From the NCBI GenBank assembly GCA_046485285.1, contig JAWOHE010000071.1:1-19633 (forward strand): 19,633 nucleotides of DNA, given 5' to 3'. This document shows positions 1-18,063 of this stretch, piece by piece. The DNA is from a bacterium. Its GTDB lineage: Bacteria; Hydrothermota; Tepidihabitantia; Tepidihabitantales; Tepidihabitantaceae. A program made the position numbers and the translations under genes. The stretch's first letter is position 1. Every line of letters begins with the position of its first letter. The notes beneath the pieces were generated by a model. It did no database searches. It was not told where the DNA came from and saw nothing but the letters and a program-made list of their open reading frames with translations.

Positions 1-1
1 G

Positions 2-208
2 ATAAAGATAAAAACCTGATAAGTTTGTCTCGGTCTGGGTAGTCCAATTCAGGGTAACATAATTCTGTGCATTAACAACGGCTGTGAAAGAGGAAAGCTC
101 CACCGGCCAGAGCCCGACCTGCCGGCAGTTGAGCGAGTCCTGCCCGGGCGCAGGCAGGGCCAGCGCGAGCAGGACGACAATCGTTGGAATCAGCAGGAAT
201 CGGTCCAT
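2..208 (-). CDS. Secreted protein, 5' partial (runs off window edge)
   Basis: Not in the ORF track. SD AGGGAGG (220-214), ATG at 208, open to the edge: MDRFLLIPTIVVLLALALPAPGQDSLNCRQVGLWPVELSSFTAVVNAQNYVTLNWTTQTETNLSGFYLY. Signal peptide, then a PVELSSF..V.L.W.T..E.N..GF motif seen in Ig-like domains near T9SS-type C-terminal sorting domains. Confidence 0.75.
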   Translation of the reverse strand, partial: MDRFLLIPTIVVLLALALPAPGQDSLNCRQVGLWPVELSSFTAVVNAQNYVTLNWTTQTETNLSGFYLY

Positions 209-261
209 CGTGTCCTCCCTTCGGCCCGCGGGACTCGCGGAGAGGTCAGGGCCGGTCAAAG

Positions 262-306
262 CTAAGTGCCGCCCCCCCCCGCACTTACTGACATCCGCAC
301 TCTCAT
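262..306 (-). CDS. 14-aa upstream ORF containing a G9 tract (MRVRMSVSAGGGGT)
   Basis: Strong SD GAGGAGG just upstream of ATG at 306; TAG at 264-262; C9 on + at 272-280. Confidence 0.55.
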   Translation of the reverse strand: MRVRMSVSAGGGGT

Positions 307-420
307 CGTTCCTCCTCGCCGGACGCCCGGCCCGGACTGCGCAGCCCTCTACCGATTCGGCAGGGACGCGGTCCGTCTGAGCCACGGAGCCGCCGCGACT
401 CAAGCCCTGTCGTCGGGAAC

Positions 421-448
421 AGGTTAGGCAGAATGCCCCTCGTGTCAA
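421..448 (-). promoter_or_regulatory. Sigma70-type promoter for the leftward uORF and secreted-protein gene
   Basis: Minus strand TTGACA (448-443)-N16-TAACCT (426-421). Confidence 0.6.
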
Positions 449-491
449 GAGGCAATCTCAGCGCCGTGCATTCACGGGGAATGACGACATC

Positions 492-520
492 TTGACTGAT
501 GCGCCGTGGTCTTCTATCCT
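492..520 (+). promoter_or_regulatory. Sigma70-type promoter for greA
   Basis: TTGACT (492-497)-N17-TATCCT (515-520), 8 nt before an in-frame GTG at 529. Confidence 0.6.
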
Positions 521-528
521 CTCGTCCA

Positions 529-2448
529 GTGGTCGATCCAGCGTCGGTCTTTCGTCAGCACCTCGGACGCCGCGAGTTTGAACTGCTGGAAGGAGACTGG
601 CTTGAGCTTCTGGGGTCTTCACTCCCGCCGACAGACCTCCTCGACCTGGTCGAGCTTGCCGTTCGCTATGCCCCGGCCGGCACTGCCGTCGACCTGCTGA
701 GAGTGCTCGCCGAGTGGCTCGGCGAGAAAGGCGAATGGTGTTGGCAGTTGGCAGCCCTGCGACGGCTCCTCGAGCTCGGCGGCGACGAACCCGGGCTTGC
801 CGAGCTGATCGCCAACTGCTACCGACGGCTTCACGCGGGAGACGAGATGATCGAACGCCTGCTCCAGCGGTCCGGCCTTGGCTACGGCGGCGAGACCCGC
901 CGTGCGTTCGACGCAATCGAGAATCTCGTGAAACTGTTGCCCGGACGCGTCCTGCTGGACCCGGAGTGCGGGCCGGTGAGGGTCACCAGGACCGACCTCC
1001 TGCTGGACCGTTCGACCGTCCGGACAACCGACGGGCGCGAGCTCGTGCTGGACCTGAATGCCGCGGCCAGCAGGCTGAGACCGGTCGAGCCCGGCGGGCT
1101 CTACGAACTGCTCATCACCGACCCGACCCGCCTGGGTGCCGCGGTCAGGGACGCACCGGGGCGCTTCGTCCAGTCGCTCCTGCGCGACCGGCGCCGGCCG
1201 ATGTCCGCGCGGGAAATCCGCGCCGAACTCGCTGACGTCATAACCGACAGCGAATGGGACGGCTTCTGGGGCCGGGCCCGGCGCGAGCTCGACGGCGCCC
1301 CCCACGTGATGACCGTGGACCGGCCCGCGCGCGGCTACCAATGGTCGGATGTCCCGGTCGAGCAGGCGGAATCGCGGCCCCGCAAGTCACCGGCACGCGG
1401 AGCGCCCGTGTCCGAGGAGGGGCTGGCAAGTGCGTCCCGCGCTGATGCGCTCGCGATGTACACCGCCCGGGCCAGGCTGACCGACCGGCGCCAGTTCGTC
1501 AGTCTTGCCGTGGAGTCCGGGCGGCCGGACCTGCCGGAGCTCCTGTCCGACCTGTTCTGCGCCGAGCGTGACTCGCGCGCCCGCGACTTCATCGAGGGGC
1601 AGTTGCGACAGCTATCACCCGGGTCGTGGACCAGGCTGGTCGCCCGGGTGCTGACGTCGTACCGGCAACTGCCCGCTGCGTTCGCTTGGGTCGCCGCGAA
1701 TTCGGCGAGGCTCGAGGGCGTCGAGCCTTCGGCCGTGCTGACCCGGACGCTCGACCTGCTCGAATCACCGGACCACAAGGCGCAGTTCGCCACGCTGTTG
1801 CGCGCGCTCTTCGCGGACGACTACCGGCTGGTCCGGGCGAGCCTGGACGCGTCGGAGCCGGCCGGTGCCCGCCGCCTGTTGGACCGGCTCGGCCGCATCG
1901 CCGGCGTCGAGGACTACCGCCGCCAGGAGCTCGCCGCGCTGGTCCAGGCCCGCCATCCGGTTCTCGGTGACAGCCCGGACGACGGCGTGATGCTCACGAC
2001 CGCCGCCGGGTTGGCGCGAGCCCGGGGCGAACTCAAACGGCTGACCGGGGAGGAGATGCCCCGCGTCGCCGATGAGCTGGGCCGGGCCCGCGCCCAGGGC
2101 GACCTCAGCGAGAACTACGAGTACAAGGCGGCCAAGGAGAAGCAGGCCCGGCTCGCGGCCCGGGTCGGGCGCCTGCAGGCCGAACTGGGCCGCGCGAGGG
2201 TGGTCCGTCCCGACGAGGTCGAGCGCGACCGCGTGTCTTTCGGCTGTCGCGTCGACGTCGAGGACAACACCGGGGCCGTGACCGGCTACTCGGTCCTCGG
2301 GCCGTGGGATTCCGACCCTGACCGCGGGGTGATTTCCTACCTGGCCCCGCTCGGACGCGCGATGCTCGGCCGGCGCGCCGGCGAAAGCTTCGAGCTCGAT
2401 GGCCGCATCCACACGATCGTCGGCATCGCCCCTGCCGGGTTTGACTGA
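529..2448 (+). CDS. greA: Transcription elongation factor GreA with long N-terminal extension
   Basis: C-terminal Gre domain (ARAQGDLSENYEYKAAKEKQ; VSFGCRV; ILGPWD-like VLGPWDSD; ISYLAPLGRAMLG). Start moved from ATG 499, which lies inside the promoter, to GTG 529. Confidence 0.9.
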   Translation: MVDPASVFRQHLGRREFELLEGDWLELLGSSLPPTDLLDLVELAVRYAPAGTAVDLLRVLAEWLGEKGEWCWQLAALRRLLELGGDEPGLAELIANCYRRLHAGDEMIERLLQRSGLGYGGETRRAFDAIENLVKLLPGRVLLDPECGPVRVTRTDLLLDRSTVRTTDGRELVLDLNAAASRLRPVEPGGLYELLITDPTRLGAAVRDAPGRFVQSLLRDRRRPMSAREIRAELADVITDSEWDGFWGRARRELDGAPHVMTVDRPARGYQWSDVPVEQAESRPRKSPARGAPVSEEGLASASRADALAMYTARARLTDRRQFVSLAVESGRPDLPELLSDLFCAERDSRARDFIEGQLRQLSPGSWTRLVARVLTSYRQLPAAFAWVAANSARLEGVEPSAVLTRTLDLLESPDHKAQFATLLRALFADDYRLVRASLDASEPAGARRLLDRLGRIAGVEDYRRQELAALVQARHPVLGDSPDDGVMLTTAAGLARARGELKRLTGEEMPRVADELGRARAQGDLSENYEYKAAKEKQARLAARVGRLQAELGRARVVRPDEVERDRVSFGCRVDVEDNTGAVTGYSVLGPWDSDPDRGVISYLAPLGRAMLGRRAGESFELDGRIHTIVGIAPAGFD

Positions 2449-3113
2449 TGCCCATCACCCTGCGCGTCCGGCCCGGCCGGCCGAATGATTCGGCGGTCCT
2501 GGAGGCCGCCGCGATTATCCGGGCAGGCGGCATCGTCGTGTTCCCGACCGAGACCGTCTACGGCATCGGTATCGGGCTCGACCACGCGGGAAGCGGGGAG
2601 ACGGGAGTGGCCCGCGTCTCCGCGCTGAAGGGACGGCCCGCCGGGATGCCGGTACTGCTCCACTGTGCCTCGGTCCAGGACATCCCGGGATTGGCCCGGT
2701 CGATGCCGCGGTCGGCGCTCGACCTGGTGCAGGCCTTCCTGCCCGGCCCGCTGGCGCTCGTACTGCCCGCATCCGACCGCGTGCCCGCCGCACTGCAGGG
2801 ACCGGGCGGCACGGTCGGCATCCGCGTGGTCGCACTGCCGGTCACCCAGGCGCTCATCCGCCGGGTCGGGACGCCGCTTGCCGGGTCGAGTGCCAACCCG
2901 CACGGCACGCCGGCGACCGCCGGGTTCTCCGAACTCGACGCAGCGATCCTGGCCGGCGCGGACGTCATCCTCGACTCGGGCCGATGTGGAACCGGCCTGG
3001 CCTCGACGGTGGTGGACCTGGCGACCGGCCCGCCGCGACTGCTTCGCGAAGGCGCGATTCCCCGCGCGGCGGTCGAGTCGGTGCTGGACGTGCGGCTGGC
3101 GGAAAGCGGCTAG
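2448..3113 (+). CDS. tsaC: L-threonylcarbamoyladenylate synthase (YrdC domain only)
   Basis: VVFPTETVYGIG, LKGRP, FLPGPLALVL, TVGIRV, SSANPHG, ASTVVD, LLREGAI motifs; TGATG overlap with greA. Confidence 0.93.
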   Translation: MPITLRVRPGRPNDSAVLEAAAIIRAGGIVVFPTETVYGIGIGLDHAGSGETGVARVSALKGRPAGMPVLLHCASVQDIPGLARSMPRSALDLVQAFLPGPLALVLPASDRVPAALQGPGGTVGIRVVALPVTQALIRRVGTPLAGSSANPHGTPATAGFSELDAAILAGADVILDSGRCGTGLASTVVDLATGPPRLLREGAIPRAAVESVLDVRLAESG

Positions 3114-4672
3114 TAGCGGTACTCGAACCGCAGTCCGAAGTCGAGCCCCGAGCGTCTTTCGGTCGTGCCGTCGGCGTTCTCCCGGCGCCACCAGGAGAAG
3201 TCGCCGAGAACCCTGAGGTCGCGCAGGGGACGAAGGCCCGCTTCCAGCCCGAGCCTGAGCTCGCGCTCGATCAGTTCGCCCTCGAGCTCGGACGGGAACC
3301 CGCCGGGAAGCCCGCCTCCCAGCCAGCTCCTGCGCTCGAAGTCGCCGCGGTTGTGATAGCCGCGCCGGACGTGACGGCCGAAGGCACACAGCTCCAGCGG
3401 CTCCGCCGGAAACAGGCCGACCCGGAGGTCGAGCAGGTCGGCGTCAGGCCCAAGGCCGTGGCCGAGCGGCATCCCGTAGTGCTCGTACATGATGTGGTGG
3501 ATTCGGTGGTAGTAGGTGAACGGGTTGATCCGGACGTACTCGGCCCGCACGTCGAGCGGCAGGTTCGGCGCCCAGCGTCCACCGACCTGCACCGCGGTCG
3601 CATTCGGCGGCATCTGCTCGCGCGGTAGGAACTCGAAATTGTCGACGAGCAGAGCCGCGTAGGCCCGGAACGGCGCGAAGTCCAGCACCAGGTCGGCCCC
3701 GACCAGCAGGTTGTCGTCGTGGCCCGAGTTGGCGACCTCGAGGTAGATCGGTATCAACGGGTTCATCATCCCGAAGAAGGAACGCGTCTGGAGCGAGTCC
3801 CACGAGTAGACGTTGGCGAGCACCCCGCCCAGCCGCAGGCGCCGCCACGGCGACAGCTCGACCCGCTGGAGCGAGACGAACCGGTGCTTGAGCCCCCAGC
3901 GGGACAGGTAGGCGGTGAGACCCTGATACTTGAAGCCGCCGTAGTCCGCGACCAGCCCGACATGGTCGAGCGCGGGCGCCTCGTCGCCAAGGATCACCGC
4001 CCCGGTGTAGCCCGGCCCCCAGCGAAACTCGTCGCGGCCGACCCCGAGCCGGAGCCGCCACGGCAGGCGAAACGCCAGCCAGGCCTGCTCGACCTCGAGC
4101 GTCCCGAGGTTCATCCACGACTCGACCCGCGTCCCCCGGACGTAGTGGCCGGCCGAGTCCGCGACCTCGACCGTGTCCGGCCGGAACACCGTGAACTCGG
4201 CCCGTTCCAGGAACGCAAAGTCGGCGCCCGGCCGATTGCCGAGCGTCGCGCCGAGCGAGCCGAACACGTCGGTCCGCCCGCCCAGTCGCCTGACACCGCC
4301 GCGACTGAACAGGTCGGCATCGAACCTGGCGTCCGGGCCGGCCGGCGGGACCGGCAGGCTGAGCACCGGCCGGCGCGGCCCGCCGTATCCGCCGCCCGGC
4401 GCCAGATACTCCCGGAACTCGCGGGCCAGCCGGGCCAGCGCCGCACGCAGTCCGGGCGCGAGCCGTCGGCCCGCCGCCAGCGACTCGGCCTCGAAGGCGA
4501 GCCGGCCGGCCTGGCTCCTCGTCCACGGCCGGCTCGTGGGCGGCGCGGTCCTGACGAACCCTGCCACGCGCAACAGCTCGACGTCGTCGTAGACCGGCGA
4601 GTCGGTCGGGATGTGGGCGATGCTCGCCGCGGCCGTCGCGGCCAGCGCCAGGACCAGCAGGGCGGTTCGCAT
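3110..4672 (-). CDS. Capsule assembly Wzi-family-like outer-membrane beta-barrel protein
   Basis: Signal peptide; N-terminal TRPWTR helical segment; GRDEFRWGPGYTGAVILGDEAP; LGHGLGPDAD; C-terminal aromatic beta-signal LRFEYRY. Confidence 0.75.
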   Translation of the reverse strand: MRTALLVLALAATAAASIAHIPTDSPVYDDVELLRVAGFVRTAPPTSRPWTRSQAGRLAFEAESLAAGRRLAPGLRAALARLAREFREYLAPGGGYGGPRRPVLSLPVPPAGPDARFDADLFSRGGVRRLGGRTDVFGSLGATLGNRPGADFAFLERAEFTVFRPDTVEVADSAGHYVRGTRVESWMNLGTLEVEQAWLAFRLPWRLRLGVGRDEFRWGPGYTGAVILGDEAPALDHVGLVADYGGFKYQGLTAYLSRWGLKHRFVSLQRVELSPWRRLRLGGVLANVYSWDSLQTRSFFGMMNPLIPIYLEVANSGHDDNLLVGADLVLDFAPFRAYAALLVDNFEFLPREQMPPNATAVQVGGRWAPNLPLDVRAEYVRINPFTYYHRIHHIMYEHYGMPLGHGLGPDADLLDLRVGLFPAEPLELCAFGRHVRRGYHNRGDFERRSWLGGGLPGGFPSELEGELIERELRLGLEAGLRPLRDLRVLGDFSWWRRENADGTTERRSGLDFGLRFEYRY

Positions 4673-4679
4673 CTTCGCG

Positions 4680-5309
4680 CTAGCGGATGACGCCGAGCCA
4701 GTCCCGGAGCAGGAACTGCAGCCGGCCGATCAGGAGCGACATCCGCGCCATCACCGTGTAGCCGAACGATGCCCCGAACCCGACCATCAGGAAGACGACG
4801 CCGGTCTCGGACGCGACCTTGAGCGCGCCCTTGTGCTCGCGCGAGAAAAAGAAGTAGAAAACCGAACAGACGACGCCGACGAACGATATCAGCGCGCCGA
4901 GCAGGACATCCCAGCGCGAGAAGTCCGCGGGCGTCAAGAGCGAGCCCTGGATCTGCTTGATGACGTTGGTCTGGAAGAACGCCGGGATCGCCACGCCCGA
5001 GGCCCAGCCGAGCACGAACGCCATCGGGAACCGGATCAGCCAGGAGACCTTCGGGACGAACCGCGCGAAGTAGCAGAGCCCGAGCCCGAACGGGATGATG
5101 TAGACGAGCTGACCCTCGCGGAACAGCGGCGTCACGAGGTCCGGGTAGACCGAGTTGTACCACGTCAGCGCGATGGTGTAGCCGACCGAGACCCCGACGA
5201 ACAGGTGCTCGCAGAACTTGTAGAACGGGTTGTCCTTCCACAGGAACGAGAAGATGCCGAGTGTCAGGATGGCGGCAAGCCAGGTCAGGATGCTGGTCGA
5301 GACGTGCAT
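4680..5309 (-). CDS. Uncharacterised 6-TM membrane protein (209 aa; cluster subunit D)
   Basis: Start taken as ATG 5309 (MHVSTSILTW...), TGATG-coupled to the upstream gene; hydrophobic; KDNPFYKFCEHLFVGVSVGY and FGASFGYTVMARMSLLIGR motifs. Confidence 0.88.
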   Translation of the reverse strand: MHVSTSILTWLAAILTLGIFSFLWKDNPFYKFCEHLFVGVSVGYTIALTWYNSVYPDLVTPLFREGQLVYIIPFGLGLCYFARFVPKVSWLIRFPMAFVLGWASGVAIPAFFQTNVIKQIQGSLLTPADFSRWDVLLGALISFVGVVCSVFYFFFSREHKGALKVASETGVVFLMVGFGASFGYTVMARMSLLIGRLQFLLRDWLGVIR

Positions 5310-6151
5310 CACGCCCTCCGCTTCCGGGTCGCGAAGTAGGCGACGTTGCCGATGACGACCAGCAGCATTATCACCACGTGCGCGAGCGACTGCGAGTCCA
5401 TCGCCGCCACCGCCGGCATGTAGCCCCGGCTGTAGCCGGCCTTCTGGATCATCACCTCGTACTCGGCCCCGCCCTTCATCCCGGCGAGCATCCCGGTGAG
5501 CTGGCCGCTCTGCAGGTAGGGATAGACGTCCGCGGCCGAGACCGCGGTCACCCCGGCGCCGACCTTCATCCCGTAGCGCGACTGGGCGTAGAGCAGCCAG
5601 TCGCGGTAGCCCGGGTCGCCGGCCGATATCGCCACCGCCATCGCGATATCGCGCAGCTTCGTCACCTCGCGCATCATCGCCAGCGACTCGAGCGGGTGCC
5701 CGTAGTAGTCGAGCGCGAAGACGTTGCGGATGCTCTCGCCCATCCCGAGAATCACCGCGTCGACCCCGGCCTTCCAGCCGAGGTAGACGACGTCCTCGCC
5801 GTAGACCTTGCCGTACTCGGGCGCGACCTCCTGCACCGCCTGGTCGGCGAGCCCGGCCCCGGTCACCCAGAGCCCGCACAGCACCACCCTGACGTCGCGC
5901 GCGAAGGCGTGGCGCATCAGCCCGACCAGCATCGGGTAGAGCTCCGGCATCGAGCTCGGGTCGAAATCCACCGAAATCAAGAGTGTCTGGCCGGCCGGGA
6001 TTGCGTCAACCGCCTCGAACAACGCCTGTGCCCGCGGCCCTGACGACACGCCCAGCCCGAGCGGCACGACCAGCGGGAAGGTCACCAGCGCCGCCATTAC
6101 GAGGAAGATGACCCGGCGGTCGATCCTCTGCAGCAGCTCGAAGAACCTCAC
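5309..6151 (-). CDS. Uncharacterised protein with N- and C-terminal TM anchors around an alpha/beta domain (280 aa; subunit C)
   Basis: GTG 6151 overlaps the upstream stop (GTGA); RIDRRVIFLV.. TM, DVVYLGW, GMKGGAEYE, MDSQSLAH + TM + RKRRA. Confidence 0.88.
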   Translation of the reverse strand: MRFFELLQRIDRRVIFLVMAALVTFPLVVPLGLGVSSGPRAQALFEAVDAIPAGQTLLISVDFDPSSMPELYPMLVGLMRHAFARDVRVVLCGLWVTGAGLADQAVQEVAPEYGKVYGEDVVYLGWKAGVDAVILGMGESIRNVFALDYYGHPLESLAMMREVTKLRDIAMAVAISAGDPGYRDWLLYAQSRYGMKVGAGVTAVSAADVYPYLQSGQLTGMLAGMKGGAEYEVMIQKAGYSRGYMPAVAAMDSQSLAHVVIMLLVVIGNVAYFATRKRRA

Positions 6152-6777
6152 GACTTCCCGCCCCCCAGCCAGCCGCGCTCGATGCCGAGAATCACCTTGA
6201 GCGAGGTCGCGATCGCGCCCAGCGCGACGCCGAACAGGATTCCCCGCTTCGCCGCCATGTTCGGGACCGAGAGCACCCACTCGGCGATGTCGGGCAGTTT
6301 GTCCCACATCACCCGCCCCACCGGCACCATCCCCAGCATCACGATGAACGCCGCGACGAGCAGCAGCGCCGCCTCCCTGGTCCGCGCCCGGAACGCCCGG
6401 TAGGCGGCCGAGGCCATGTAGAACGCGAGGATCGCGAACATCGAGGCGTTCAGCGGCACCAGCAGGTTCTTGAACACGACCTCCTGCAGCGGCGAGCCTG
6501 GCCGCACGCCCCAGCCCAGGCCGACGACCGTCGTCGCCACCACCGCGACCAGCGTGACGATCGAGTACGGCCAGCCCGCGCGCCTGCGCCGCAACCGGTC
6601 GGCGTGGTAGAGGACGAGACTGCCGACGCCAAGCACGAGCGCGAACGCGGCGACGATCCGAATCCACTTTGTCGTGACGTCGTAGACCGCGACCGAGGCC
6701 GGGTGCGGGACGAAGAACTGGATCATCATCATTACGCCCATCACCAGGCAGATGGCCAGGGGAATCGTCCGGCTCAC
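6148..6777 (-). CDS. Uncharacterised 6-TM membrane protein (209 aa; subunit B)
   Basis: SD-like AGGAGAGG, GTG start; six hydrophobic segments; SMFAILAFYMASAAYRAFRAR, VPNMAAKRGI, LKVILGIER motifs. Confidence 0.88.
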   Translation of the reverse strand: MSRTIPLAICLVMGVMMMIQFFVPHPASVAVYDVTTKWIRIVAAFALVLGVGSLVLYHADRLRRRRAGWPYSIVTLVAVVATTVVGLGWGVRPGSPLQEVVFKNLLVPLNASMFAILAFYMASAAYRAFRARTREAALLLVAAFIVMLGMVPVGRVMWDKLPDIAEWVLSVPNMAAKRGILFGVALGAIATSLKVILGIERGWLGGGKS

Positions 6778-6785
6778 GTCCTCTC

Positions 6786-7904
6786 CTAGCTCGTCTCAAA
6801 CAGGCCGGCGACGCGGCCGAGGAACCCGAGCGCGGGCAGTCGCGACAAGAGCATCAACGCCGACCCGAGGACGATGACCGCGAGGATGATGAGCTTCCCC
6901 AGGTCCTGGCCCTTGAGCGACCCCACCAGCAGCGGCTCGCGCGACAGGTAGGCCGACGCGGCGTAGAGCTCCTCGCCGATGAGCGTGTAGTCGCAGGCGG
7001 TGATGAAGAACGGGAGCTGGAACACCGAATCGGTGCCGGCGATCTGGATCGCGCCGGTCGTCGCGCCGGTCTCGGCGAGAATCAGCGACTCGGCCCAGAA
7101 CGTCCCGAGGAAGAAGTTCGTCGCCGGCTTCTCGCGGACCATCAGCCCGTCCACCGCCGCGGCGTAGGCGAACTGCTCCGAGGTCACGAAGAACACGCTA
7201 TCCTGCCTGAATGCATCCGGCCGCCCGGCCCTCGTGTAGGCCTCGCGGACGACCTCCCTCGCCACGGTGTAGACGATCGGGTCGCGGTTCGGCACGAGCA
7301 GTGTCGAATCGTACTGGGCGATCTTCTTCGCCACCTCGCCGAGGATGTTTATCGAGGCGATTGTCGCGATTTGCGACACGTCGGCCAGCCCGGGGACGTA
7401 GATTATCGGCCGTCCCATCTCGGTCGCCCGGCCGACCGCCTCCTCGACCGCATCCAGCCCGGCGATTCGCCGGATGAAGAGGCTCTTCCCGCGCTTCGCC
7501 TGCTGGATGAAGTAGATGACCAGCGCAAAGAACACCACCATCCCGACGAGAATGTTGATCCGGTCGGTGTTGAAGAACTGCGGCGCGGCTATCGCCTGCG
7601 CCGACGCCTCTGACCATAACGTATCCGCGTCCGTCACCGCTGCGACGCGGTAGCGATAGGCCACGCCGTTCCCCGCGCCCTCGTCGAGGAAGCCCGCGTC
7701 GGTCCCGGGCACGGACGCTATCACCTCGGCCTCGCCGCCCTCGGCCGTCCGCTCGATCAGCCACGCCTCGGCCGCGACACCCGCGCCCGCCTGCCAGCAC
7801 ACGGTGATGCTGCCGCCCCGGTCGTTCGGCGTATCCGCCGCCGTGACCAGGCCCGGCGCCCCGGCCGAATGGACGCCCAGCAGGACGACGAAGAGCGCCA
7901 TCAT
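6786..7904 (-). CDS. FN3-like domain + TM + DUF6754-like domain protein (372 aa; subunit A)
   Basis: ATG 7904 overlaps the MazG-like stop (ATGA); signal peptide; FN3-like (DTPNDRGGSITVCW...FLD...YRYRVAAV); TM; IRRIAGLDAVEEAVGRATEMGRP...DYTLIGEELYAASAYLS, recalled as DUF6754. Confidence 0.85.
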   Translation of the reverse strand: MMALFVVLLGVHSAGAPGLVTAADTPNDRGGSITVCWQAGAGVAAEAWLIERTAEGGEAEVIASVPGTDAGFLDEGAGNGVAYRYRVAAVTDADTLWSEASAQAIAAPQFFNTDRINILVGMVVFFALVIYFIQQAKRGKSLFIRRIAGLDAVEEAVGRATEMGRPIIYVPGLADVSQIATIASINILGEVAKKIAQYDSTLLVPNRDPIVYTVAREVVREAYTRAGRPDAFRQDSVFFVTSEQFAYAAAVDGLMVREKPATNFFLGTFWAESLILAETGATTGAIQIAGTDSVFQLPFFITACDYTLIGEELYAASAYLSREPLLVGSLKGQDLGKLIILAVIVLGSALMLLSRLPALGFLGRVAGLFETS

Positions 7905-8233
7905 CGCGCATCCCCTCGCTGGCCGCCCGCTGGCGCGTCGGCAGGGCCCGGCTCGGCGCAAGCGCAGGGCGTCCCACCGCACTTGGGACAGCCCGACGCG
8001 TATTTCGCGCACGCCACCTCGAGGTCGACGCCCTCAAGCGTCGCGAGGCTCGCCAGCCAGGCCAGCACGTCGGCGAACTCCTCGCGGAGGTTGTCCGGCT
8101 CGCCGCGACGCATCGCCCGCGCCAGCTCGCCGGTCTCCTCGACCAGCCAGCGGAACGTCCCGTCGCGGCCGCGCCGGGAGTCCTTCGCGAAGTACGCCCT
8201 GCGAATCAGCGCCTGGAACTCGGCGATTGTCAC
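7901..8233 (-). CDS. MazG-like nucleotide pyrophosphohydrolase with C-terminal Cys cluster
   Basis: WLVEETGELA and EEFADVLAWLASLA all-alpha NTP-PPase motifs; CPKCGGTPCAC tail. Confidence 0.88.
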   Translation of the reverse strand: MTIAEFQALIRRAYFAKDSRRGRDGTFRWLVEETGELARAMRRGEPDNLREEFADVLAWLASLATLEGVDLEVACAKYASGCPKCGGTPCACAEPGPADAPAGGQRGDAR

Positions 8234-8239
8234 CGCGTC

Positions 8240-8267
8240 AGTATCGGGGAAACGCCCCCGCTGTCAA
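8240..8267 (-). promoter_or_regulatory. Putative internal promoter for the MazG-like gene and membrane cluster
   Basis: TTGACA (8267-8262, overlapping the upstream stop)-N16-GATACT (8245-8240), 6 nt before GTG 8233; no SD. Confidence 0.45.
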
Positions 8268-9337
8268 CACCGTCTTCGCTCGAGCAGGGAAGCGAAAGCC
8301 TCGACGCGGGTCTGGAAGCCGACCTCGCTCGTGTGCTCGTCCAGCGACAGCGACAGGAACGGTATCCTGTAGTCGCGGCTCGCCCGCTCCAGCGCCGGCT
8401 GGACGACCGTGCCCGGCATGCACCCGAACGGGTGGACGTGGATGACGCCGTCATAGCCGGACCGCGCCGCCAGGATCAGGTGGCCGAGCGAGTTCTCGTC
8501 CTCGCCGCCGACGCAGTCCCGCCAGTACCGGCGCGCGGCCCGGCGGGCGCGAACCAGCTCGCCCTTGCCAACCCGAAACCCGTGGAAGCCCAGCCAGCGG
8601 TGCTCGGTCAGGAACGGCTCGACCTCGACCCCGATCTCGCCCAGCCTGGCGATGATGTCGAAGTTGATGAACGGCTCGATCGTGCAGAAGCTCTCCCCGA
8701 CCAGCATCACCCTCGGCACCCGGCCGCGGCCGTCGAGTGGCACCCTCGCGAATGAGCCCGGGATCGACCGCTCCAGCCGAGCCAGCCCGGCGACGCTCCC
8801 GGTCGCCTCGATGGCCCGGACGAGATCCCGGTACGCGGCCCGGCAGTCGCGCGGCCGTGCCGCGCGCGGCATCGTCCGGCGACAGCACTCCTGCGCGCAA
8901 TCGAGCGCCCGCGACTTGTGCCAGCCCAACCGCAACGCCCGCGCCAGCCTGACCGCGGCACGCTCCGTCCGCCCGCCGCTCAGCGCGATGAGCTCGCGGG
9001 CAATCGCCCCGAGACTGTCATGCCGTAGTTCGATCAGCCGGAAGCGATAGCCCCGACCGCGCAGGATCTCGGCCTGCAGCCGCCCGTAGTAGCCGAATCG
9101 GCACGACCACGACCCGCTCACGTAGGCGAGGGTGTCCGCGCCCAGCTCGAGGCTCCGGACCATGTTTCCCAGCGTCAGCTTGAACGGTATGCACATCAGC
9201 TCGGGCGCCAGCCTGACCCCGAGCTCAAGTACCCTTCGGTCCGGCGGCGGCGGCACGACCGGCTCGATGCCCAGCTCGCGCAGAATCGGCGCGAGCACGA
9301 CCCGGATCTCGCCCATGTACGGGAACGCGAGCTTCAT
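8264..9337 (-). CDS. CoA-substrate activase / 2-hydroxyacyl-CoA dehydratase-related Fe-S protein (COG3581-like)
   Basis: MKLAFPYMG, PELMCIPFKLTLGN, SCRFGYY, LVGE, DGVIHVHPFGCMP, LDEHTSEVGFQTRVEAF. Confidence 0.8.
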   Translation of the reverse strand: MKLAFPYMGEIRVVLAPILRELGIEPVVPPPPDRRVLELGVRLAPELMCIPFKLTLGNMVRSLELGADTLAYVSGSWSCRFGYYGRLQAEILRGRGYRFRLIELRHDSLGAIARELIALSGGRTERAAVRLARALRLGWHKSRALDCAQECCRRTMPRAARPRDCRAAYRDLVRAIEATGSVAGLARLERSIPGSFARVPLDGRGRVPRVMLVGESFCTIEPFINFDIIARLGEIGVEVEPFLTEHRWLGFHGFRVGKGELVRARRAARRYWRDCVGGEDENSLGHLILAARSGYDGVIHVHPFGCMPGTVVQPALERASRDYRIPFLSLSLDEHTSEVGFQTRVEAFASLLERRRC

Positions 9338-10278
9338 CGACCGACCGCCGCCGAATCCAGGCGCCGGCTTGCGCGCGGCCGCCTCAGCATCTCGACGAAC
9401 GACTCCAGTCGGGTGGCCAGCCCGCCCGGGCTCGAATGCTCGTCGAATAGGAGCTCGAGAATCGGCATCCCGGCCTCCCGGCCCGGCACCCGCCGCACCG
9501 ACAGCCGTATCAACTCGTTGGTCACCGCCGCCGTACCGCAGGCGAAGCTCGCCGCCAGCACCAGCCCGCCAACCTCGGGGTCGGCGGCCGCCCGAAACGC
9601 GGCTCGCAGCAGCTCACGTTCGAACCGCCAGTTCGGCTCGAAGCACCCCGGCGGCACCGAGTCGGCGACGCCGGGCCGGGCGACAAATGGAGACGCCCCG
9701 GCGCGTCGCAGCGCCGCCACGACACCCATGCTCAACTCGTCGTCGCCCAGCAGGTAATCGTGCCCGACGACAGCGACTCTCGGGCCGCTTGCGTTGGCCG
9801 CGTCAACACCCACCCCGGCTGAGACAACCGACCGCGCCGCGCGCAGGGCGCGGCGCCAGCGACCACCACCGACGCCCAGCGCACGTGCCAACCGGCGGAA
9901 CGACTCGTCCTCGGAATGCGCCCGCTCGTCGAAGACGATTTCGGCCGCCGGCGGCAGGTCGGGCAGGAGCGCGCGGGTCAGGTCCGGCAGGGCCAGCGCC
10001 TTCGGGCAGGCGAACTCGATGTCACCGTCCCGGCGCCAGCACACCAGCCTCGGCAAGAGAAGCCGGTCGACCGAGGGCGCGAGCGTGACCACGTGGCCGA
10101 GGAACGCCTTGACCGGCAGGCACAGCTCGGCCGGGGCAATCCGGATTCCGGCGAGCAGCATCCGGCGGCTGGTCGGCGGTGAGACCCGGACTTCGAAGCC
10201 GAGCCCGGCAATGAAGGACTCCCAGGCAGGCAGGAACCGGTAGGCGTCGAGGGCGCGGCAGATGCCAACAGTCTGCAA
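9334..10278 (-). CDS. Acyl-CoA dehydratase activase-related protein (DUF2229/COG3580-like)
   Basis: VGICRAL, VSPPT, ELCLPVKAFLGHV, ACPKALALPDL, VVGHDY, SFACGT, DEHSSPGGLATRLESFVEML; TTG start. Confidence 0.8.
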   Translation of the reverse strand: MQTVGICRALDAYRFLPAWESFIAGLGFEVRVSPPTSRRMLLAGIRIAPAELCLPVKAFLGHVVTLAPSVDRLLLPRLVCWRRDGDIEFACPKALALPDLTRALLPDLPPAAEIVFDERAHSEDESFRRLARALGVGGGRWRRALRAARSVVSAGVGVDAANASGPRVAVVGHDYLLGDDELSMGVVAALRRAGASPFVARPGVADSVPPGCFEPNWRFERELLRAAFRAAADPEVGGLVLAASFACGTAAVTNELIRLSVRRVPGREAGMPILELLFDEHSSPGGLATRLESFVEMLRRPRASRRLDSAAVGR

Positions 10279-10287
10279 GAGAACCCG

Positions 10288-10355
10288 ATTCTATTGGCGC
10301 GCGCCGGGCAGTCAAACGGCCGGCCGGTTGACTCGGCCGCACCCGGCAATATAGT
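10288..10355. promoter_or_regulatory. Back-to-back divergent sigma70 promoters
   Basis: Minus: TTGACT (10315-10310)-N16-TAGAAT (10293-10288). Plus: TTGACT (10328-10333)-N16-TATAGT (10350-10355). Confidence 0.75.
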
Positions 10356-10364
10356 CGAGTCACC

Positions 10365-12878
10365 GTGAAGACGCTGACAGCCGTCCTGTTCTCCGCAATG
10401 GCCGCGCTCGTGGCCGGGAACCTTCCCGCCCTCCCGGACAGCATCGTCGTCCGTGACTGGCTGGTCGCCGGGCCGTTCCCGGCCGGCCCGCGCGAGGGCA
10501 TTACCGGTGTCGTCGAGGACGCCGCGAGCTTCCGGCCCACGCCGGGCGAGACGCTCTGGTCCGCACTCGTCCAGGGCGGACGGCTGACCTGGCGCGCGGC
10601 CAGGGCCGACTCAGCCGGGTGGCTCGAGACCGGCTACGAAGGCGTCCGATGGGACACCATCCAGGACTACCTGGGCATCGCCGGACTCTACGGCGCGGGC
10701 TACGCCTGGGCCGAGTTCGAGAGCCCGCGGGCAGGGCGGGCGCTGGCGAAGACCTCCCGGCTCGGCGGCTTCCACCTCAACGGCCGCGGCTACCCGGCCG
10801 ATGTCTACGGAGACGGCTGGTTGGAGGTCCCGGTCCTGGTTGACTCGGGACCGAACCGGGTCCTGCTCCGGCTCGCCGGGTTTGGCGATTCGCGGGTCCG
10901 GTTCGCGCTCGTTCCCCCGCCCGGACCGGTCCTGCTCGTCACCGGCGACGCCACCCTCCCCGACCTCGAGGCCGACTCCGCGCTCGCGGCCTGGGTCGGA
11001 ATCCCGCTGGTCAATACGACCGAACGCCGCCTCGACTCGGTGCTGGTCCGGCTCTGCGCCGGCGCCGACACCGTCGACACGGTCGTCAATAACCTGCCCG
11101 GCCTCGGCGCGAAGAAGGTGCCGATCCGGCTCTCCTTCCCGGCCGCCGCCTTCGACAGCGCCGAGCCGTGGCTCCCGGTAGTCGTGACGGTTTCGGCGGG
11201 CGGCTACGCCCGCACCGACACGCTCCGCGCCGCGGTCCGCCGCCCGGGCCAGCCGGTCCGCCGGACGTTCCGGTCCGGGATTGACGGCTCCTGCCAGTAC
11301 TACGCGGTGATGAAGCCGTCGAACCAGGACCCCGCCCGCCGCTACCCGGTCATCTACACGCTCCACGGCGCGGGTGTCGAGGCTTGGGGCCAGGCCAACG
11401 CTTACCGCCAGAAGGACTGGGCCTTCGTCGTCGCACCGACCAACCGGCGGCGCTACGGCTTCGACTGGCAGGACTGGGGCCGGCTCGACGCCGTCGAGGT
11501 TCTCGACACGGTCCTCGCCCGCCTGCCGATCGACCCGGACCGCGTGCTCCTGGCCGGCGGCTCGATGGGCGGCCACGGCGCCTGGCACGTCGGGCTCACG
11601 CACCCGGACCGCTTCGCGGTGGTGGCGCCCCAGGCGAGCTGGCCGACCCACCAGCTCTACGTGCCGTGGTACCTCCAGCGCAGCGCGATCTTTGCCCAGC
11701 CCGGCCAGCTCGCGGTCCGCGACCGCGTACTGCGCTCGGACAACGTGCCGGCAATGCTCGGCAACGCGCTCAACCTCCCGTTCTTCATCCTCCACGGCGG
11801 CGACGACGACAACGTCCCGACGTTCCACGGCCGCAACTTCGCGGCCTGGCTCAACGAGCTCGGCACGGAGTTCGTCTACCGCGAGGTCCCGGGCCGCGGT
11901 CACTGGTGGAGCGACGAGGAACTCGGCACGACCGTCTGCGACGACACCGCGCTCATCGCCTACATCCGCGACCGCCGGCGCGACGCCGGGCCCCGCCGCG
12001 TCCGGCTCCGGACCGCCGACCTCGGCACCGCCAACAAGGCCTGGTGGTGCGAAATCGAGCGGGTCATCCGGGTCGGCCAGGATGCGGAGATTGACGCCCG
12101 GGCCGGCGACGCGAGCATCGCCGTCCGAACGACGAACGTCGCCCGGTTCAGCCTCGAGCTCACCGGCCAGCCGTTCTTCGCCGGCCGGGTCGGCTTCGAG
12201 GTCGACGGCCGCGCGGTCGGTCGGCCGGTTGACCTGCCCGGCCGGTTCACGTTCCACCGCACGGCGAGGGGATGGACGGTCGGCCCGGGCCGGCCCGACC
12301 CGGCCGCCAAGACCCCGCGCCGCTACGGCCCCTGCCGGCAGGCGATGATGCGGCCCTTCACGCTCGTCTATGGCACGCAGGACCCTGCGCTCGCCGACGA
12401 CCTCCGCTCCGCCGCGACCGCCGAGGCGACCCGCTGGTGGCTCATCGCCAACGGCCTCTGCGAGGTGCTTCCCGACACGGCCGCTTCCCCGGCCGCCCTC
12501 GCCGGGCATAACCTCGTCCTCCTCGGCGGCGCGGACGCCAACGCCGTCACCCGCCGCCTCGCCGGCCGCCTGCCGATCGGCGCCCGCGACGGTGAGCTCT
12601 TCCTCGGCGACCGCCGGCTAGGTCCCGACCTCGCCGCGATGTTCGTCTACCCGGACCCGGACGACCCGGCGCGGCTGGTGCTGGTCCGGCTTGGCACCGA
12701 CGCCGAGCACACCCGGCTCGCCAACTTCTGGGGCCTCGTCCATTCCGGCGCCGGCATCCCGGACTTCATCGTCTTCGACCGCTCGGTCCGGCGACTCGGC
12801 TGGGGTGGAGTCCGCGCCGCCGGCTTCTTCGACCCGGACTGGCGATTCGACCCGGCCTCGAGCTGGCTCGCGGAGTAA
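10365..12878 (+). CDS. Secreted alpha/beta-hydrolase (prolyl oligopeptidase S9-like serine hydrolase) with accessory domains
   Basis: Signal peptide; LHGAG, GGSMGGHG nucleophile elbow, ILHGGDDDNVP (Asp), GRGHWW (His). Confidence 0.85.
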   Translation: MKTLTAVLFSAMAALVAGNLPALPDSIVVRDWLVAGPFPAGPREGITGVVEDAASFRPTPGETLWSALVQGGRLTWRAARADSAGWLETGYEGVRWDTIQDYLGIAGLYGAGYAWAEFESPRAGRALAKTSRLGGFHLNGRGYPADVYGDGWLEVPVLVDSGPNRVLLRLAGFGDSRVRFALVPPPGPVLLVTGDATLPDLEADSALAAWVGIPLVNTTERRLDSVLVRLCAGADTVDTVVNNLPGLGAKKVPIRLSFPAAAFDSAEPWLPVVVTVSAGGYARTDTLRAAVRRPGQPVRRTFRSGIDGSCQYYAVMKPSNQDPARRYPVIYTLHGAGVEAWGQANAYRQKDWAFVVAPTNRRRYGFDWQDWGRLDAVEVLDTVLARLPIDPDRVLLAGGSMGGHGAWHVGLTHPDRFAVVAPQASWPTHQLYVPWYLQRSAIFAQPGQLAVRDRVLRSDNVPAMLGNALNLPFFILHGGDDDNVPTFHGRNFAAWLNELGTEFVYREVPGRGHWWSDEELGTTVCDDTALIAYIRDRRRDAGPRRVRLRTADLGTANKAWWCEIERVIRVGQDAEIDARAGDASIAVRTTNVARFSLELTGQPFFAGRVGFEVDGRAVGRPVDLPGRFTFHRTARGWTVGPGRPDPAAKTPRRYGPCRQAMMRPFTLVYGTQDPALADDLRSAATAEATRWWLIANGLCEVLPDTAASPAALAGHNLVLLGGADANAVTRRLAGRLPIGARDGELFLGDRRLGPDLAAMFVYPDPDDPARLVLVRLGTDAEHTRLANFWGLVHSGAGIPDFIVFDRSVRRLGWGGVRAAGFFDPDWRFDPASSWLAE

Positions 12879-12883
12879 CCCGC

Positions 12884-13753
12884 CTGGCCTCGATCGAGCT
12901 CGCCGCCCGCGCCAAGGTCAACCTCGGCCTCTGGGTCGGTCCCCGACGGCCGGACGGCTACCACGACATCGTCAGCGTCGTCGCGCCGCTCGAGCTCGCC
13001 GACACGGTATCGGTGCGGACCGCCGCGCGCGGGCTCACGGTCCGGACCGACGACCCGGCCCTGCCCGCCGACGAGGAGAATCTCGCCGGCCGGGCCGCGC
13101 GCGCCTTCCTCGACGCGGTCGGCAGCCGGGCCGGCTGCCGCGTCCGCATCCGAAAGCGCATCCCGGTCGGCGCCGGCCTCGGCGGCGGGTCGGCCGACGC
13201 CGCCGCGGTGCTCGCCGGCCTCAACCGGCTCCACGGCCGGCCGCTCGCCGGCCGCGAGCTCCGCGCGCTCGGCGCCCGGGTCGGCAGCGACGTCCCGGCC
13301 CTGCTCGCCGGCCGCGCCTGCGCGGTCCGCGGCCGGGGCGAGCGCGTCCGCCCGGTCCGCCTGCCCCGCCTCCGGCTCATCCTTCACCTGCCCGGCTTCG
13401 GGGTGTCGACCGCCTGGGCGTACCGGCGGCTCGACGCCCTCCGCCGGGACGGCCGCGCCTTGACAGGGCCACCCGTTTCACCTAAGATGATCGCGCTCTC
13501 GTTGAGAGGGCAAGAACCGGACCGGGTCGCCTGCCTGCTCGCGAACAGCTTCGAGCCGGTCGTGTTCCGGCGCTACCCGGCGCTCGGACGCGCCCGCGCC
13601 GCGCTCCTGCGGCACGGCTGTTCGGCGGCCTCCCTCTCCGGCTCCGGCAGTACGGTCTACGGCCTGGTGTCGGCAACGCGGCAGGACCGGGAAGACCCGA
13701 TGGCCGCCCTGGCGCGCGTCGGCCTTCCCTGCATCGCAACCCGCACCGCCTGA
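12884..13753 (+). CDS. ispE: 4-diphosphocytidyl-2-C-methyl-D-erythritol kinase
   Basis: AKVNLGL, RRPDGYHDI (upstream of the tracked ORF start), KRIPVGAGLGGGSADAA, GSDVP, GRGE, NSFE, LSGSGSTVY; start inferred at CTG 12884. Confidence 0.93.
   Translation: MASIELAARAKVNLGLWVGPRRPDGYHDIVSVVAPLELADTVSVRTAARGLTVRTDDPALPADEENLAGRAARAFLDAVGSRAGCRVRIRKRIPVGAGLGGGSADAAAVLAGLNRLHGRPLAGRELRALGARVGSDVPALLAGRACAVRGRGERVRPVRLPRLRLILHLPGFGVSTAWAYRRLDALRRDGRALTGPPVSPKMIALSLRGQEPDRVACLLANSFEPVVFRRYPALGRARAALLRHGCSAASLSGSGSTVYGLVSATRQDREDPMAALARVGLPCIATRTA
13460..13488 (+). promoter_or_regulatory. Promoter inside ispE for tRNA-Gln-prs-rplY-pth
   Basis: TTGACA (13460-13465)-N17-TAAGAT (13483-13488), with a local run of AT-rich codons. 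Confidence 0.7.
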
Positions 13754-13755
13754 CC

Positions 13756-13770
13756 GCCTGCCCGGCAGGC
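13756..13770. repeat. Short palindrome between ispE and the tRNA
   Basis: GCCTGCC-C-GGCAGGC perfect inverted repeat. Confidence 0.6.
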
Positions 13771-13773
13771 ATT

Positions 13774-13844
13774 TGGGGCGTCGTCTAAGGGCAGGACCCG
13801 GGATTTTGGATCCCGGTGTGGAGGTTCGAATCCTCCCGCCCCAG
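13774..13844 (+). tRNA. tRNA-Gln (TTG)
   Basis: Acceptor TGGGGCG/CGCCCCA, anticodon arm CGGGA-TTTTGGA-TCCCG, T arm GGAGG-TTCGAAT-CCTCC, discriminator G; CCA not encoded. Confidence 0.96.
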
Positions 13845-13895
13845 CTCCTGACCGAGACCGACCGGCCGACGGACGATTCGAGAAAGCGAGGCAGT

Positions 13896-14837
<942 letters not shown>

Positions 14838-14851
14838 AGAAGCGAGGAGAT

Positions 14852-15514
14852 ATGGCCTACATCGCCAAAGCAACATCCCGGACCGAGACCGGCAAGGGCC
14901 GCATCCGCAAGCTGCGCCGCGGCGGCATCGTCCCGGCCGTCGTCTACGGCCACGGCGACCCCTCGGCAATGCTCAGCCTCAACGAGCACGACTTCGGCCG
15001 CCTGCTCGACAAGCTCCGCGGCCACAGCCCGATCGTCGAGCTCGACATCGACGGCAAGTCGACCCGCTGCGTCATCAAGACCCTCCAGCGCAACCCGGTC
15101 AACGGCCGGCTTCTTCACGTCGACTTCCAGAAAGTCCACGCCGACGAGAAGATCACCATCAACGTCCCGGTCCTGCTCCACGGCACCGCGATCGGCGTCA
15201 AGGAGGGCGGGATGCTCGACCACCTGCTGCGCGAGGTCCCGGTCCGCGCGACCATCAGCCGGATACCCGAGCACTTCGACGTCGACGTCACCGAGCTGAA
15301 GATGGGCGAGAGCGTCCACCTCTCCCGGCTCGCCGCCGAGGAAATCGAGTTCACCCTGCCGCCCGAGTCCGCGGTCGTCACCGTCCTCGCCCCGCGCAAA
15401 CTCATTGCCGAGACGCCCAAGGTCGAGGCGGCCGAGGGCGAGGCGCCTGCCGAGGGCGAGGCGGCCAAGGAGCCGGCGGCCGAGGAGAAGACCGAAGAGA
15501 AGAAGAAGAAGTAG
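14852..15514 (+). CDS. rplY: 50S ribosomal protein L25 / Ctc
   Basis: SD GAGGAG; GKG..RKLRRGGIVPAVVYGHG, LLHVDFQ, GVKEGG; acidic tail. Confidence 0.96.
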   Translation: MAYIAKATSRTETGKGRIRKLRRGGIVPAVVYGHGDPSAMLSLNEHDFGRLLDKLRGHSPIVELDIDGKSTRCVIKTLQRNPVNGRLLHVDFQKVHADEKITINVPVLLHGTAIGVKEGGMLDHLLREVPVRATISRIPEHFDVDVTELKMGESVHLSRLAAEEIEFTLPPESAVVTVLAPRKLIAETPKVEAAEGEAPAEGEAAKEPAAEEKTEEKKKK

Positions 15515-15533
15515 CCGCCGGACGCGGGACGCG

Positions 15534-16121
15534 GTGACGCTATTTGGCCTCGGCAACCCGGGCGGGCGCTATGCCGCCACCCGGCACAACGCCGGCTTCA
15601 TGGTCCTCGATGAGCTGGCCCGGCGCCTGCGCGCGCGCTTCCGCGCCGCCGACGGGCGTGACGCCGTCCGCGCCGACTGGCGGGGCCGCGACCTCGTCCT
15701 CGTCAAGCCGACGCGCTTCATGAACGAGTCCGGCCTGCCGGTCGCCGACCAGCTCCGCCGCCGGCCCGACGACTTCCTCGTCGTCTGCGACGACTTCGCC
15801 CTGCCGCTTGGCCGCCTCCGGCTCCGGCCGCAGGGCTCGGACGGCGGCCACAACGGCCTCGCCTCGATCATCGCCCGGCTCGGCACCGACCGCTTCCCGC
15901 GCCTCAGGGTCGGCATCGGCACCCCGCCGGCCGGGCAGGACTGGGCGAGCTACGTCCTCGAGCCCTTCGCGCCCGGCGAGGTCGAGCAGGTCGCCGGCAT
16001 CATCGGCCGGGCCGCCGACGCCTGCCTCGCGGTAGTCGAGCACGGCATCGAGCGGGCAATGAACCGCTTCAACCCGCCCGGCGACGCGGACCCGTCGCCC
16101 GCCCCGGGCCCGGCCTCCTGA
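15534..16121 (+). CDS. pth: Peptidyl-tRNA hydrolase
   Basis: GLGNPG..YAATRHNAGF, KPTRFMNESG, GSDGGHNGLASI, FPRLRVGIG, AMNRFN; GTG start at 15534. Confidence 0.96.
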   Translation: MTLFGLGNPGGRYAATRHNAGFMVLDELARRLRARFRAADGRDAVRADWRGRDLVLVKPTRFMNESGLPVADQLRRRPDDFLVVCDDFALPLGRLRLRPQGSDGGHNGLASIIARLGTDRFPRLRVGIGTPPAGQDWASYVLEPFAPGEVEQVAGIIGRAADACLAVVEHGIERAMNRFNPPGDADPSPAPGPAS

Positions 16122-16123
16122 CA

Positions 16124-17179: not shown

Positions 17180-17191
17180 CCAGGAGGAAAG

Positions 17192-17605
17192 TTGAATCAC
17201 TACGAAGCAGTGACGCTCCTCGTGCCGGAGTTCGCCGACAAGGACGTCCAGAAATACGTCGATGACCTGACCGAACTGCTCGGCCGTCACGGCGCCGCCG
17301 AGATCAGCCCGGCCCGGGTTGACCGCCGCGCGCTCGCCTACCCGGTCCGCAAGCGCACCGAGGGCTACTACGTCTACCTCCGCTTCGACGCCCCGGCCGG
17401 CCTGCCCGCGGAAGTCAAGAGCGAGTTCAAGCACCGCGAGGGCATCCTCCGCCTCGCCTTCGTGCGCCGGCCCAGGCTCGCGCCCGAGCCCGAGCTCGCC
17501 GGCCGCCCGGCCCCGCCGCCGCTGCCCGAAGAGCCGGTCGAGGACATCGAGGTCCCGCCCGAGCCGGCCGAGGCCGGCGAAGCCCCGGAGCGGGACGATG
17601 GCTGA
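17192..17605 (+). CDS. rpsF: 30S ribosomal protein S6
   Basis: SD AGGAGG, TTG start; HYE, RRALAYPVRK..EGYY, ILR; Pro/Glu-rich tail. Confidence 0.93.
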   Translation: MNHYEAVTLLVPEFADKDVQKYVDDLTELLGRHGAAEISPARVDRRALAYPVRKRTEGYYVYLRFDAPAGLPAEVKSEFKHREGILRLAFVRRPRLAPEPELAGRPAPPPLPEEPVEDIEVPPEPAEAGEAPERDDG

Positions 17606-18038
17606 CCTCCGGCTCGGCAGCCTCAACATCGTGCTCCTGACCGGCCGGGTCACGATGGACCCGGAACTCCGCTACACGCCGAAGGGCACCGCCGTCCTCC
17701 AGTTCCGGGTCGCGGTCAACCGCCGCTACCCGGACCGCAGCACCGGCGAGTGGAAAGAGGACACCTCGTTCTTCACCGTCATCGTCTGGGCCCAGCAGGC
17801 CGAGCGCCTCGGCGAGCAGATGAAGAAAGGCTCGGCGGTGATGATCGAGGGCGAACTCCGCAGTCGGTCCTGGGAGACCCAGTCCGGCGACAAGCGCTCG
17901 GTCGTCGAGATCCACGCCCGCCGGGTCCAGGTCCTCGACCGGGCCGCCGCCGGCGAAGCCCGGGCCGAAACCCCGGTCGTGGACCCGGAAGGCCCGCCCG
18001 AAGCCGGCACCGACCTGCTCGACGACATCCCGTTCTGA
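17598..18038 (+). CDS. ssb: Single-stranded DNA-binding protein
   Basis: LNIVLLTGR..DPELRYTP.G, KKGS.VMIEGEL.SRSWE, C-terminal DDIPF; ATG 17598. Confidence 0.97.
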   Translation: MADLRLGSLNIVLLTGRVTMDPELRYTPKGTAVLQFRVAVNRRYPDRSTGEWKEDTSFFTVIVWAQQAERLGEQMKKGSAVMIEGELRSRSWETQSGDKRSVVEIHARRVQVLDRAAAGEARAETPVVDPEGPPEAGTDLLDDIPF

Positions 18039-18063
18039 GCCGGCCGGGCGTTCGGCCGGTCAG
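18035..18063. terminator. GC-rich hairpin between convergent ssb and PASTA-TonB genes
   Basis: CCGGCCG-GGCGTT-CGGCCGG (18040-18059), extended by CTGA/TCAG that include both stop codons; no U-tract. Confidence 0.45.

Follow-up and report, generated by a model that had tools for sequence, protein, structure and literature searches.

Inverted-topology paralogue pairs such as YdgE/YdgF, YdgQ/YdgL and the DUF606 pairs consist of small polytopic proteins whose sequence homology is clear (PMC3962082, in its available text), and the term “soluble domain” has no occurrence in that part of the paper. The present analysis concerns a cassette of four genes, A, B, C and D, on the minus strand of a bacterial contig (JAWOHE010000071.1, assembly GCA_046485285.1), positions 1 to 19,633 of which were analysed as one stretch of DNA, referred to here as the window. 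A (7904..6786, 372 amino acids) encodes a DUF6754 protein, B (6777..6148, 209 amino acids) a polytopic protein with six transmembrane (TM) helices, C (6151..5309, 280 amino acids) a 216-residue domain held between two TM helices, and D (5309..4680, 209 amino acids) a polytopic protein with five to six TM helices. A preliminary description of positions 5309-7530, which take in all of C and B and the part of A that starts near residue 125, had proposed that A and C are distant homologues facing opposite sides of the membrane. The opposite faces are upheld as a prediction; the homology is not, as all sequence tests are at chance. The favoured reading, which is rather probable, is that A and C have the same build and a Rossmann-type fold and face opposite sides of the membrane, their common descent being unproven.

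The evidence for a common build comes from AlphaFold2 models of C (pLDDT 97.2, pTM 0.92) and of A residues 105-372 (pLDDT 85.4, pTM 0.77). Both show the same order of elements, TM1-a0-b1-a1-b2-a2-b3-a3-b4-a4-b5-a5-b6-a6-TM2, as had been proposed by eye. The soluble part of each is a Rossmann-type a0-(beta-alpha)x6 domain: the DUF6754 core of A spans residues 148-321 (6942..7463; this and all further coordinates of the cassette are on the minus strand) and is predicted to be cytoplasmic, while the domain of C spans residues 39-237 (5441..6037) and is predicted to be periplasmic. In A the core is preceded by TM1, residues 113-137 (7493..7568; model helix 9-33, hydropathy segment 116-134), and followed by TM2, residues 324-353 (6846..6935; model helix 220-249, hydropathy segment 335-353), which has a QD.GK motif at its start with Q333, D334, G336 and K337 invariant. 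The corresponding helices of C are TM1, residues 12-28 (6068..6118; model helix 12-28, hydropathy segment 14-32), and TM2, a model helix at residues 246-279 (5312..5416). The sixteen segments quoted in support of the by-eye pairing are all found where they had been placed in A and C, beginning at residues 152, 166, 194, 235, 286, 296, 306 and 329 of A and at residues 44, 56, 81, 119, 196, 209, 220 and 250 of C. All eight pairs fall in equivalent elements of the models, namely a0, b1, the end of a1 plus b2, b3, b5, a5, b6 and TM2. The strand b4 is the only one without such a pair, and between a3 and b4 the chain of C forms an additional loop with short helices.

Foldseek searches with both models returned no PDB match at E<=0.001; the weak matches are generic, with 3wdm and 4nc9_A common to both. 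Of the 50 best PDB chains listed, 11 are common to the A and C models (1kjn_B, 4i5i_A, 8jat_A, 4is2_A, 6zdz_A, 1id1_B, 3llv_A, 4j16_C, 6i8v_A, 6lrf_A and 5ojn_A), and on each of these the two models span the same range with a nearly identical first residue. Because both models cover the same ranges of third structures, A and C can be assigned to one Rossmann-type, three-layer alpha/beta/alpha fold class, and at the level of the models the shared architecture and fold class is clear. No alpha/beta fold is commoner than the Rossmann type, and none of the PDB matches is outstanding; descent is therefore not shown by the fold. Dinucleotide-binding Rossmann enzymes carry a GxGxxG-type loop after the first strand. 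A and C differ from them in this respect, as b1 is followed by YVPGLADVSQ in A and by SVDFDPSSMP in C, and a glycine-rich loop of the GxGxxG type is absent there from both.

The membrane sidedness of the two subunits was assessed across their families. The C family alignment holds 120 representatives of 32-57% identity from an exhaustive profile search, and the A family alignment started from 54 sequences of related loci, to which paralogues and metagenome loci were later added (a metagenome search with a single protein gave nine loci). From its N-terminus, A consists of a signal peptide, an FN3 domain and a DUF6754 domain flanked by two TM helices. The signal peptide occupies residues 1-22 (7839..7904), with a hydrophobic core (hydropathy segment 2-20) and an AGA-type end, and the FN3-like ectodomain occupies residues ~23-108 (7581..7838), recognised by the match of the A profile to the Fn3-like chain 3mpc_A (E 0.0014). 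A signal peptide and FN3 ahead of TM1 fix the side of the segment that comes next. The charged clusters on which the topology had been based are present: KRGK..RR after TM1 of A, RIDRR before TM1 of C, and RKRR at the end of C. In the A family, lysine and arginine (K+R) average 4.9 after TM1 and are richer on the domain-side flanks in 82 of 82 proteins. The opposite bias holds for C, whose termini are richer in K+R than the flanks of its domain in 115 of the 120 proteins, with two ties. Its N-terminal tail, residues 1-13 (6113..6151), is predicted to be cytoplasmic and has a conserved IDRR (I10 and R12 are invariant in 30 homologues) with a mean K+R of 3.5; TM2 ends in RKRR, at a predicted cytoplasmic end, and is followed by a mean of 3.8.

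Two further observations agree with these predictions. CARDB repeats, an insert of cell-surface type, lie inside the C domain in two 838-amino acid variants, the only longer forms of that kind. The rates of change point the same way: mean identity to the window climbs from 36% in FN3, the least conserved part of A, through 58% in the C domain and 64% in each of B and D, to 80% in the A domain. In 68 of 68 cassettes the domain of A is better conserved than that of C, and the gradient places the C domain with FN3 and apart from the A domain. No 19-residue window within the A or C domain exceeds a Kyte-Doolittle mean of 1.45, so neither domain has a segment fit for a membrane helix. An A domain inside and a C domain outside is a prediction that is supported by the K+R bias, the signal peptide and FN3, the CARDB insert and the rates.

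The proposed homology fared differently. As sequence, the by-eye pairing is no better than chance, with segment-pair scores of -2 to 9 save for the TM pair, at 36. Alignment of A with C gives z values, against 300 shuffles, of -0.06 (local, Smith-Waterman) and 0.3 (global), and BLASTP gives E 2.3 or worse. The profile-profile check that had been suggested, hhalign of A against C, returned probabilities of 0.9%, 0.4% and 1.0% in three runs, the aligned part being just a TM helix and basic tail; every pairing of the four proteins (six in all) stays below 1% (B against D, 0.8%). PF20539, the DUF6754 family, matches none of the 120 diverse C proteins at E<=1, no weak Pfam family is common to A and C members, and unfiltered cross searches with the two HMMs reach at most 9.6 bits, in TM2 alone. 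A greedy hhalign alignment is colinear across 230 columns and recovers most of the by-eye pairs, with a score of 17. The global profile alignment scores 49.3, a value that is reached when A is permuted in blocks (25-43 of 100 permutations) and exceeded by several circular shifts. Conserved columns do not coincide (r = 0.04; 12 top-quartile coincidences vs 13.1 expected). Against a genome background of 20,882 open reading frames (ORFs), the C profile ranked the A paralogues 16th, 69th and unlisted, and the A profile ranked the C paralogues 117-118th. At the level of sequence, then, no relation between A and C is shown by any test.

The four genes form a recurrent unit. The complete series A-B-C-D is found in the same order in 69 of 80 related loci, with tandem cassettes in several genomes and one to six copies of the module per genome. 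The copy numbers of A and C are equal in all five near-complete genomes (16 vs 16). Fixed gene order, a 1:1 copy number and the K+R bias are properties of the cassette as observed. Of 151 genomes of the phylum, 135 contain C; those that lack it are 15 of one genus and one other, and five of five genomes tested from that genus are also without DUF6754 and PF13941, the family of the GlmL/MutL-type actin-fold gene. That gene occurs exactly once in each of six module-bearing genomes out of six. Occurrence is wider still, as the C profile matched 4147 cluster representatives and a search with A gave at least 8000 matches. Among the same-strand upstream neighbours that were scanned, 13 of 26 are Wza-like and three more are glycosyltransferases or a sugar-nucleotide dehydratase, while 8 of 18 same-strand downstream neighbours are Wzi-like. 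PF02563 gave no match in the source genome (G000).

According to the favoured reading, A and C would be different bitopic subunits of a four-protein inner-membrane module of A, B, C and D, each with one Rossmann-type domain between two membrane helices and inserted in opposite senses. The nearly invariant DUF6754 domain of A would lie in the cytoplasm with its FN3 outside, and the faster-evolving C domain would lie in the periplasm with both termini of C inside. The module would thereby cross the membrane and expose a Rossmann domain on either side. A picture of how it works can be offered tentatively, as something possible though less than even in likelihood: B and D may form the membrane core; the A domain may be a constant docking or catalytic cytoplasmic surface, common to all paralogous cassettes and possibly served by the one actin-fold protein of GlmL/MutL type in these genomes; a variable outer face may be made up of FN3 and the C domain, often beside Wza-like and Wzi-like outer-membrane proteins, acting on surface glycan.

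A number of points weigh against these proposals. The A alignment is shallow (Neff 1.9-2.4) because A evolves very slowly, and the power of hhalign is therefore limited. The five model runs of A range in pLDDT from 63.5 to 85.4, and the likeness of the A and C folds is established via third structures, by transitivity. The sidedness of A and C is a prediction alone, the domain flanks are richer in K+R in 3 of the 120 C proteins (with the two further ties), and a C variant with HEAT repeats gives no pointer to the side. Six of the 80 loci (L075-L080) have B, C and D but no A next to them. As to function, which is inferred, the GlmL-like gene is adjacent to the cassette in 0 of 109 loci, and its co-loss with the module happened once, in one genus. 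All five genomes tested have canonical Wzz genes; there is therefore no missing-partner argument, and the argument from a missing polysaccharide co-polymerase (PCP) was rejected.

It could be proposed that A and C are true paralogues, whose ancestral TM-Rossmann-TM gene, perhaps with a polytopic partner, was duplicated, with one copy inverted and the sequence signal erased. The identical architecture and element order of the models would follow from such an origin, as would the shared fold class with the same ranges of the 11 common chains, the bitopic-polytopic-bitopic-polytopic alternation in one operon and the colinear greedy alignment; the opposite K+R bias is also that of the known inverted pairs, as given in the available text of PMC3962082. 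Every quantitative test of sequence speaks against it, however: BLASTP; hhalign, which aligns TM stretches alone and gives a similarly low 0.8% for B with D; the PF20539 and cross-HMM searches; the permuted and circularly shifted profile alignments; the conserved columns; and the genome-background ranks. In addition, the Rossmann-type fold recurs across many unrelated families, and neither model has an outstanding PDB match. Paralogy is on balance doubtful, and the specific form of it in which the module arose from a duplicated two-gene unit, a bitopic TM-Rossmann-TM protein and its polytopic partner, with inversion of one bitopic copy, is unlikely.

Two other explanations bear on the topology and on the fold. 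If the charge-based topology of one subunit were wrong, both globular domains would lie on one side of the membrane. Sidedness is a prediction, charge bias may mislead for subunits that insert within a complex, and HEAT repeats, inserted in one C variant, are commoner in the cytoplasm; yet the bias is strong in both families (115/120 and 82/82), A has its signal peptide and FN3 before TM1, the CARDB insert of C is of cell-surface type, and the rates of the C domain group with those of FN3, which makes a common side improbable. The resemblance might instead be an artefact of alignment by eye between domains of different fold, as every sequence statistic at chance would allow. The identical element order of two confident models, the sharing of 11 among the 50 best PDB matches listed over the same chain ranges, and the fall of all eight pairs in equivalent elements leave this very improbable, and on the models a difference in fold is disfavoured. 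What is preferred over both is the same build and fold class on opposite faces.

A is a full member of the catalogued Pfam family DUF6754 (PF20539; 407.6 bits, E 2.2e-122, model positions 3-248 of 257, against a gathering score of 27 bits), for which no function is described. PF20539 is matched by 54 of 54 A-family members and Pfam fn3 by 17 of the 54. A search of the PDB sequences with the A profile gave FN3 matches only, and the neighbours of A in the Protein Atlas are all DUF6754. In the literature, a term search found no paper that names DUF6754, and a search on WOR-3 and FN3 gave nothing relevant. Forms of A that lack FN3 start just before TM1. This is the case in the loci L060-L070 (A at ~6370-7330 in each), where A has neither signal peptide nor FN3; a Wza-like SLBB gene lies directly upstream on the same strand in the seven loci of this group that were scanned.

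B has six hydropathy segments when averaged over the family, with loops 2 and 4 rich in K+R. Neither B nor D has a Pfam, NCBIfam or PDB relative. C likewise has no match to a Pfam or NCBIfam family, a profile search of the PDB was empty, and the Protein Atlas holds no model for it. Insertions in C gather at two sites, and it is there that the CARDB repeats of the two 838-amino acid variants lie. One member of the C family (P0344, 472 amino acids) continues after TM2 and the basic stretch with a third helix of hydrophobic character, then a stretch that is rich in Gly and contains one Cys, and finally an additional domain of ~170 residues, and is an extended C architecture.

In addition to two full cassettes, the source genome carries a third copy of A. 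This copy (contig C14:34451-37579, or L110:4451-7579) has no B, C or D; four bases after it lies a glycosyltransferase gene of PMT_2-plus-TPR (GT-C) type, followed by RecJ. In the sister genome G029 (L109) the third A retains a full B-C-D. Where cassettes stand in tandem in L101, the first A copy (1-765) seems to be broken, as it consists of two ORFs, one for family positions 113-224 and one for 226-361. In an Ignavibacteria-labelled genome (G001, contig C40:2412-10173), tandem DUF6754 cassettes are preceded, at a distance of ~2 kb on the same strand, by the lone GlmL/MutL-type gene of that genome, the sole near-adjacency of such a gene that was seen.

The window has a G+C content of ~70%, and the closest protein relatives of its products are named candidate division WOR-3. 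The order of genes on the minus strand is G, F, A, B, C, D, E, with A-B-C-D tightly packed. A starts with the ATG at 7904, which is preceded by a GAGGGG motif; C starts with a GTG that is overlapped by the stop of B, and D with an ATG that shares one base with the stop of C. Downstream, E (4672..3110, minus strand, 520 amino acids) encodes a Wzi-like outer-membrane barrel (PF14052 at E 3e-12), and a close relative of E follows D in 34 of the 80 loci. Upstream, G (10278..9334) and F (9337..8264), both on the minus strand and DUF2229/HGD-D-like, are separated from A by 359 bases. Together they (8264-10278) encode the accessory domains of a “CoA enzyme activase”, and an ATPase gene is absent beside them; a paralogous pair elsewhere in the same genome (contig C40:15878-18585) is followed by a BcrAD_BadFG ATPase. 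As a DUF2229/HGD-D-like pair adjoins the cassette in just 4 of the 80 loci, it is a lineage-specific neighbour. Elsewhere in the window, a 649-amino acid open frame on the plus strand (499-2448) has GreA domains at residues 500-634 and is probably an over-long frame in G+C-rich DNA, and a small protein on the minus strand (18060-18725) unites a PASTA domain with a TonB_C domain. No RNA sequencing run is listed as containing this DNA, and one DNA run contains a small share of it. A PADLOC search revealed no defence families.

Among Rossmann-type domains joined to membrane proteins, the matches of A and C to RCK/KTN domains (TrkA, MthK, Ktr) and to transhydrogenase dIII are tied with those to short-chain dehydrogenases, sirtuins and GT-B halves. 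RCK/KTN and dIII domains lie on the cytoplasmic side, and A and C are distinguished from them by the lack of a GxGxxG-type loop after b1. Polysaccharide co-polymerases (Wzz/Wzc) offer a likeness in topology, as C is predicted to have its N-terminus inside, a TM helix, a periplasmic domain, a second TM helix and its C-terminus inside, and Wza-like or Wzi-like genes often neighbour the module. The PCP architecture, however, features a long helical hairpin, whereas the model of C is a compact Rossmann-type domain without one. C has no match to Wzz (PF02706) or GNVR at E<=0.1, and both are absent from the 25 families that the 120 C members match weakly most often. The genomes tested for canonical Wzz genes also keep them elsewhere.

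The DUF6754 cassette is distinguished by the recurrence of A-B-C-D in the same order, often in tandem, and by B, C and D belonging to no family. The module is near-universal in one candidate phylum and widespread elsewhere, yet no transporter, motor or enzyme that has been studied is matched by it. Two Rossmann-type domains of like build, one per membrane face, would give a testable picture of a trans-membrane coupling device, in which the invariant inner domain is a candidate for partners or ligands and the variable outer domain and FN3 are candidates for specificity.

With the YdgE/YdgF-type pairs, A and C share the position of neighbouring genes in one operon and the opposite K+R bias of the products (PMC3962082, in its available text). 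They differ in being bitopic, with a globular domain of ~200 residues each, and in having no sequence relation; of the marks of an inverted pair, A and C display the opposite charge bias and lack detectable homology. Should duplication and inversion nonetheless be their origin, the same globular domain would stand on both faces, mirrored through the plane of the membrane, and could let an actin-fold ATPase in the cytoplasm signal to the periplasm by conformational change. A and C would then be the first inverted-topology pair with large soluble domains, and the concept of inverted-topology duplication, which concerns small helical proteins, would come to include subunits that carry a large globular domain.

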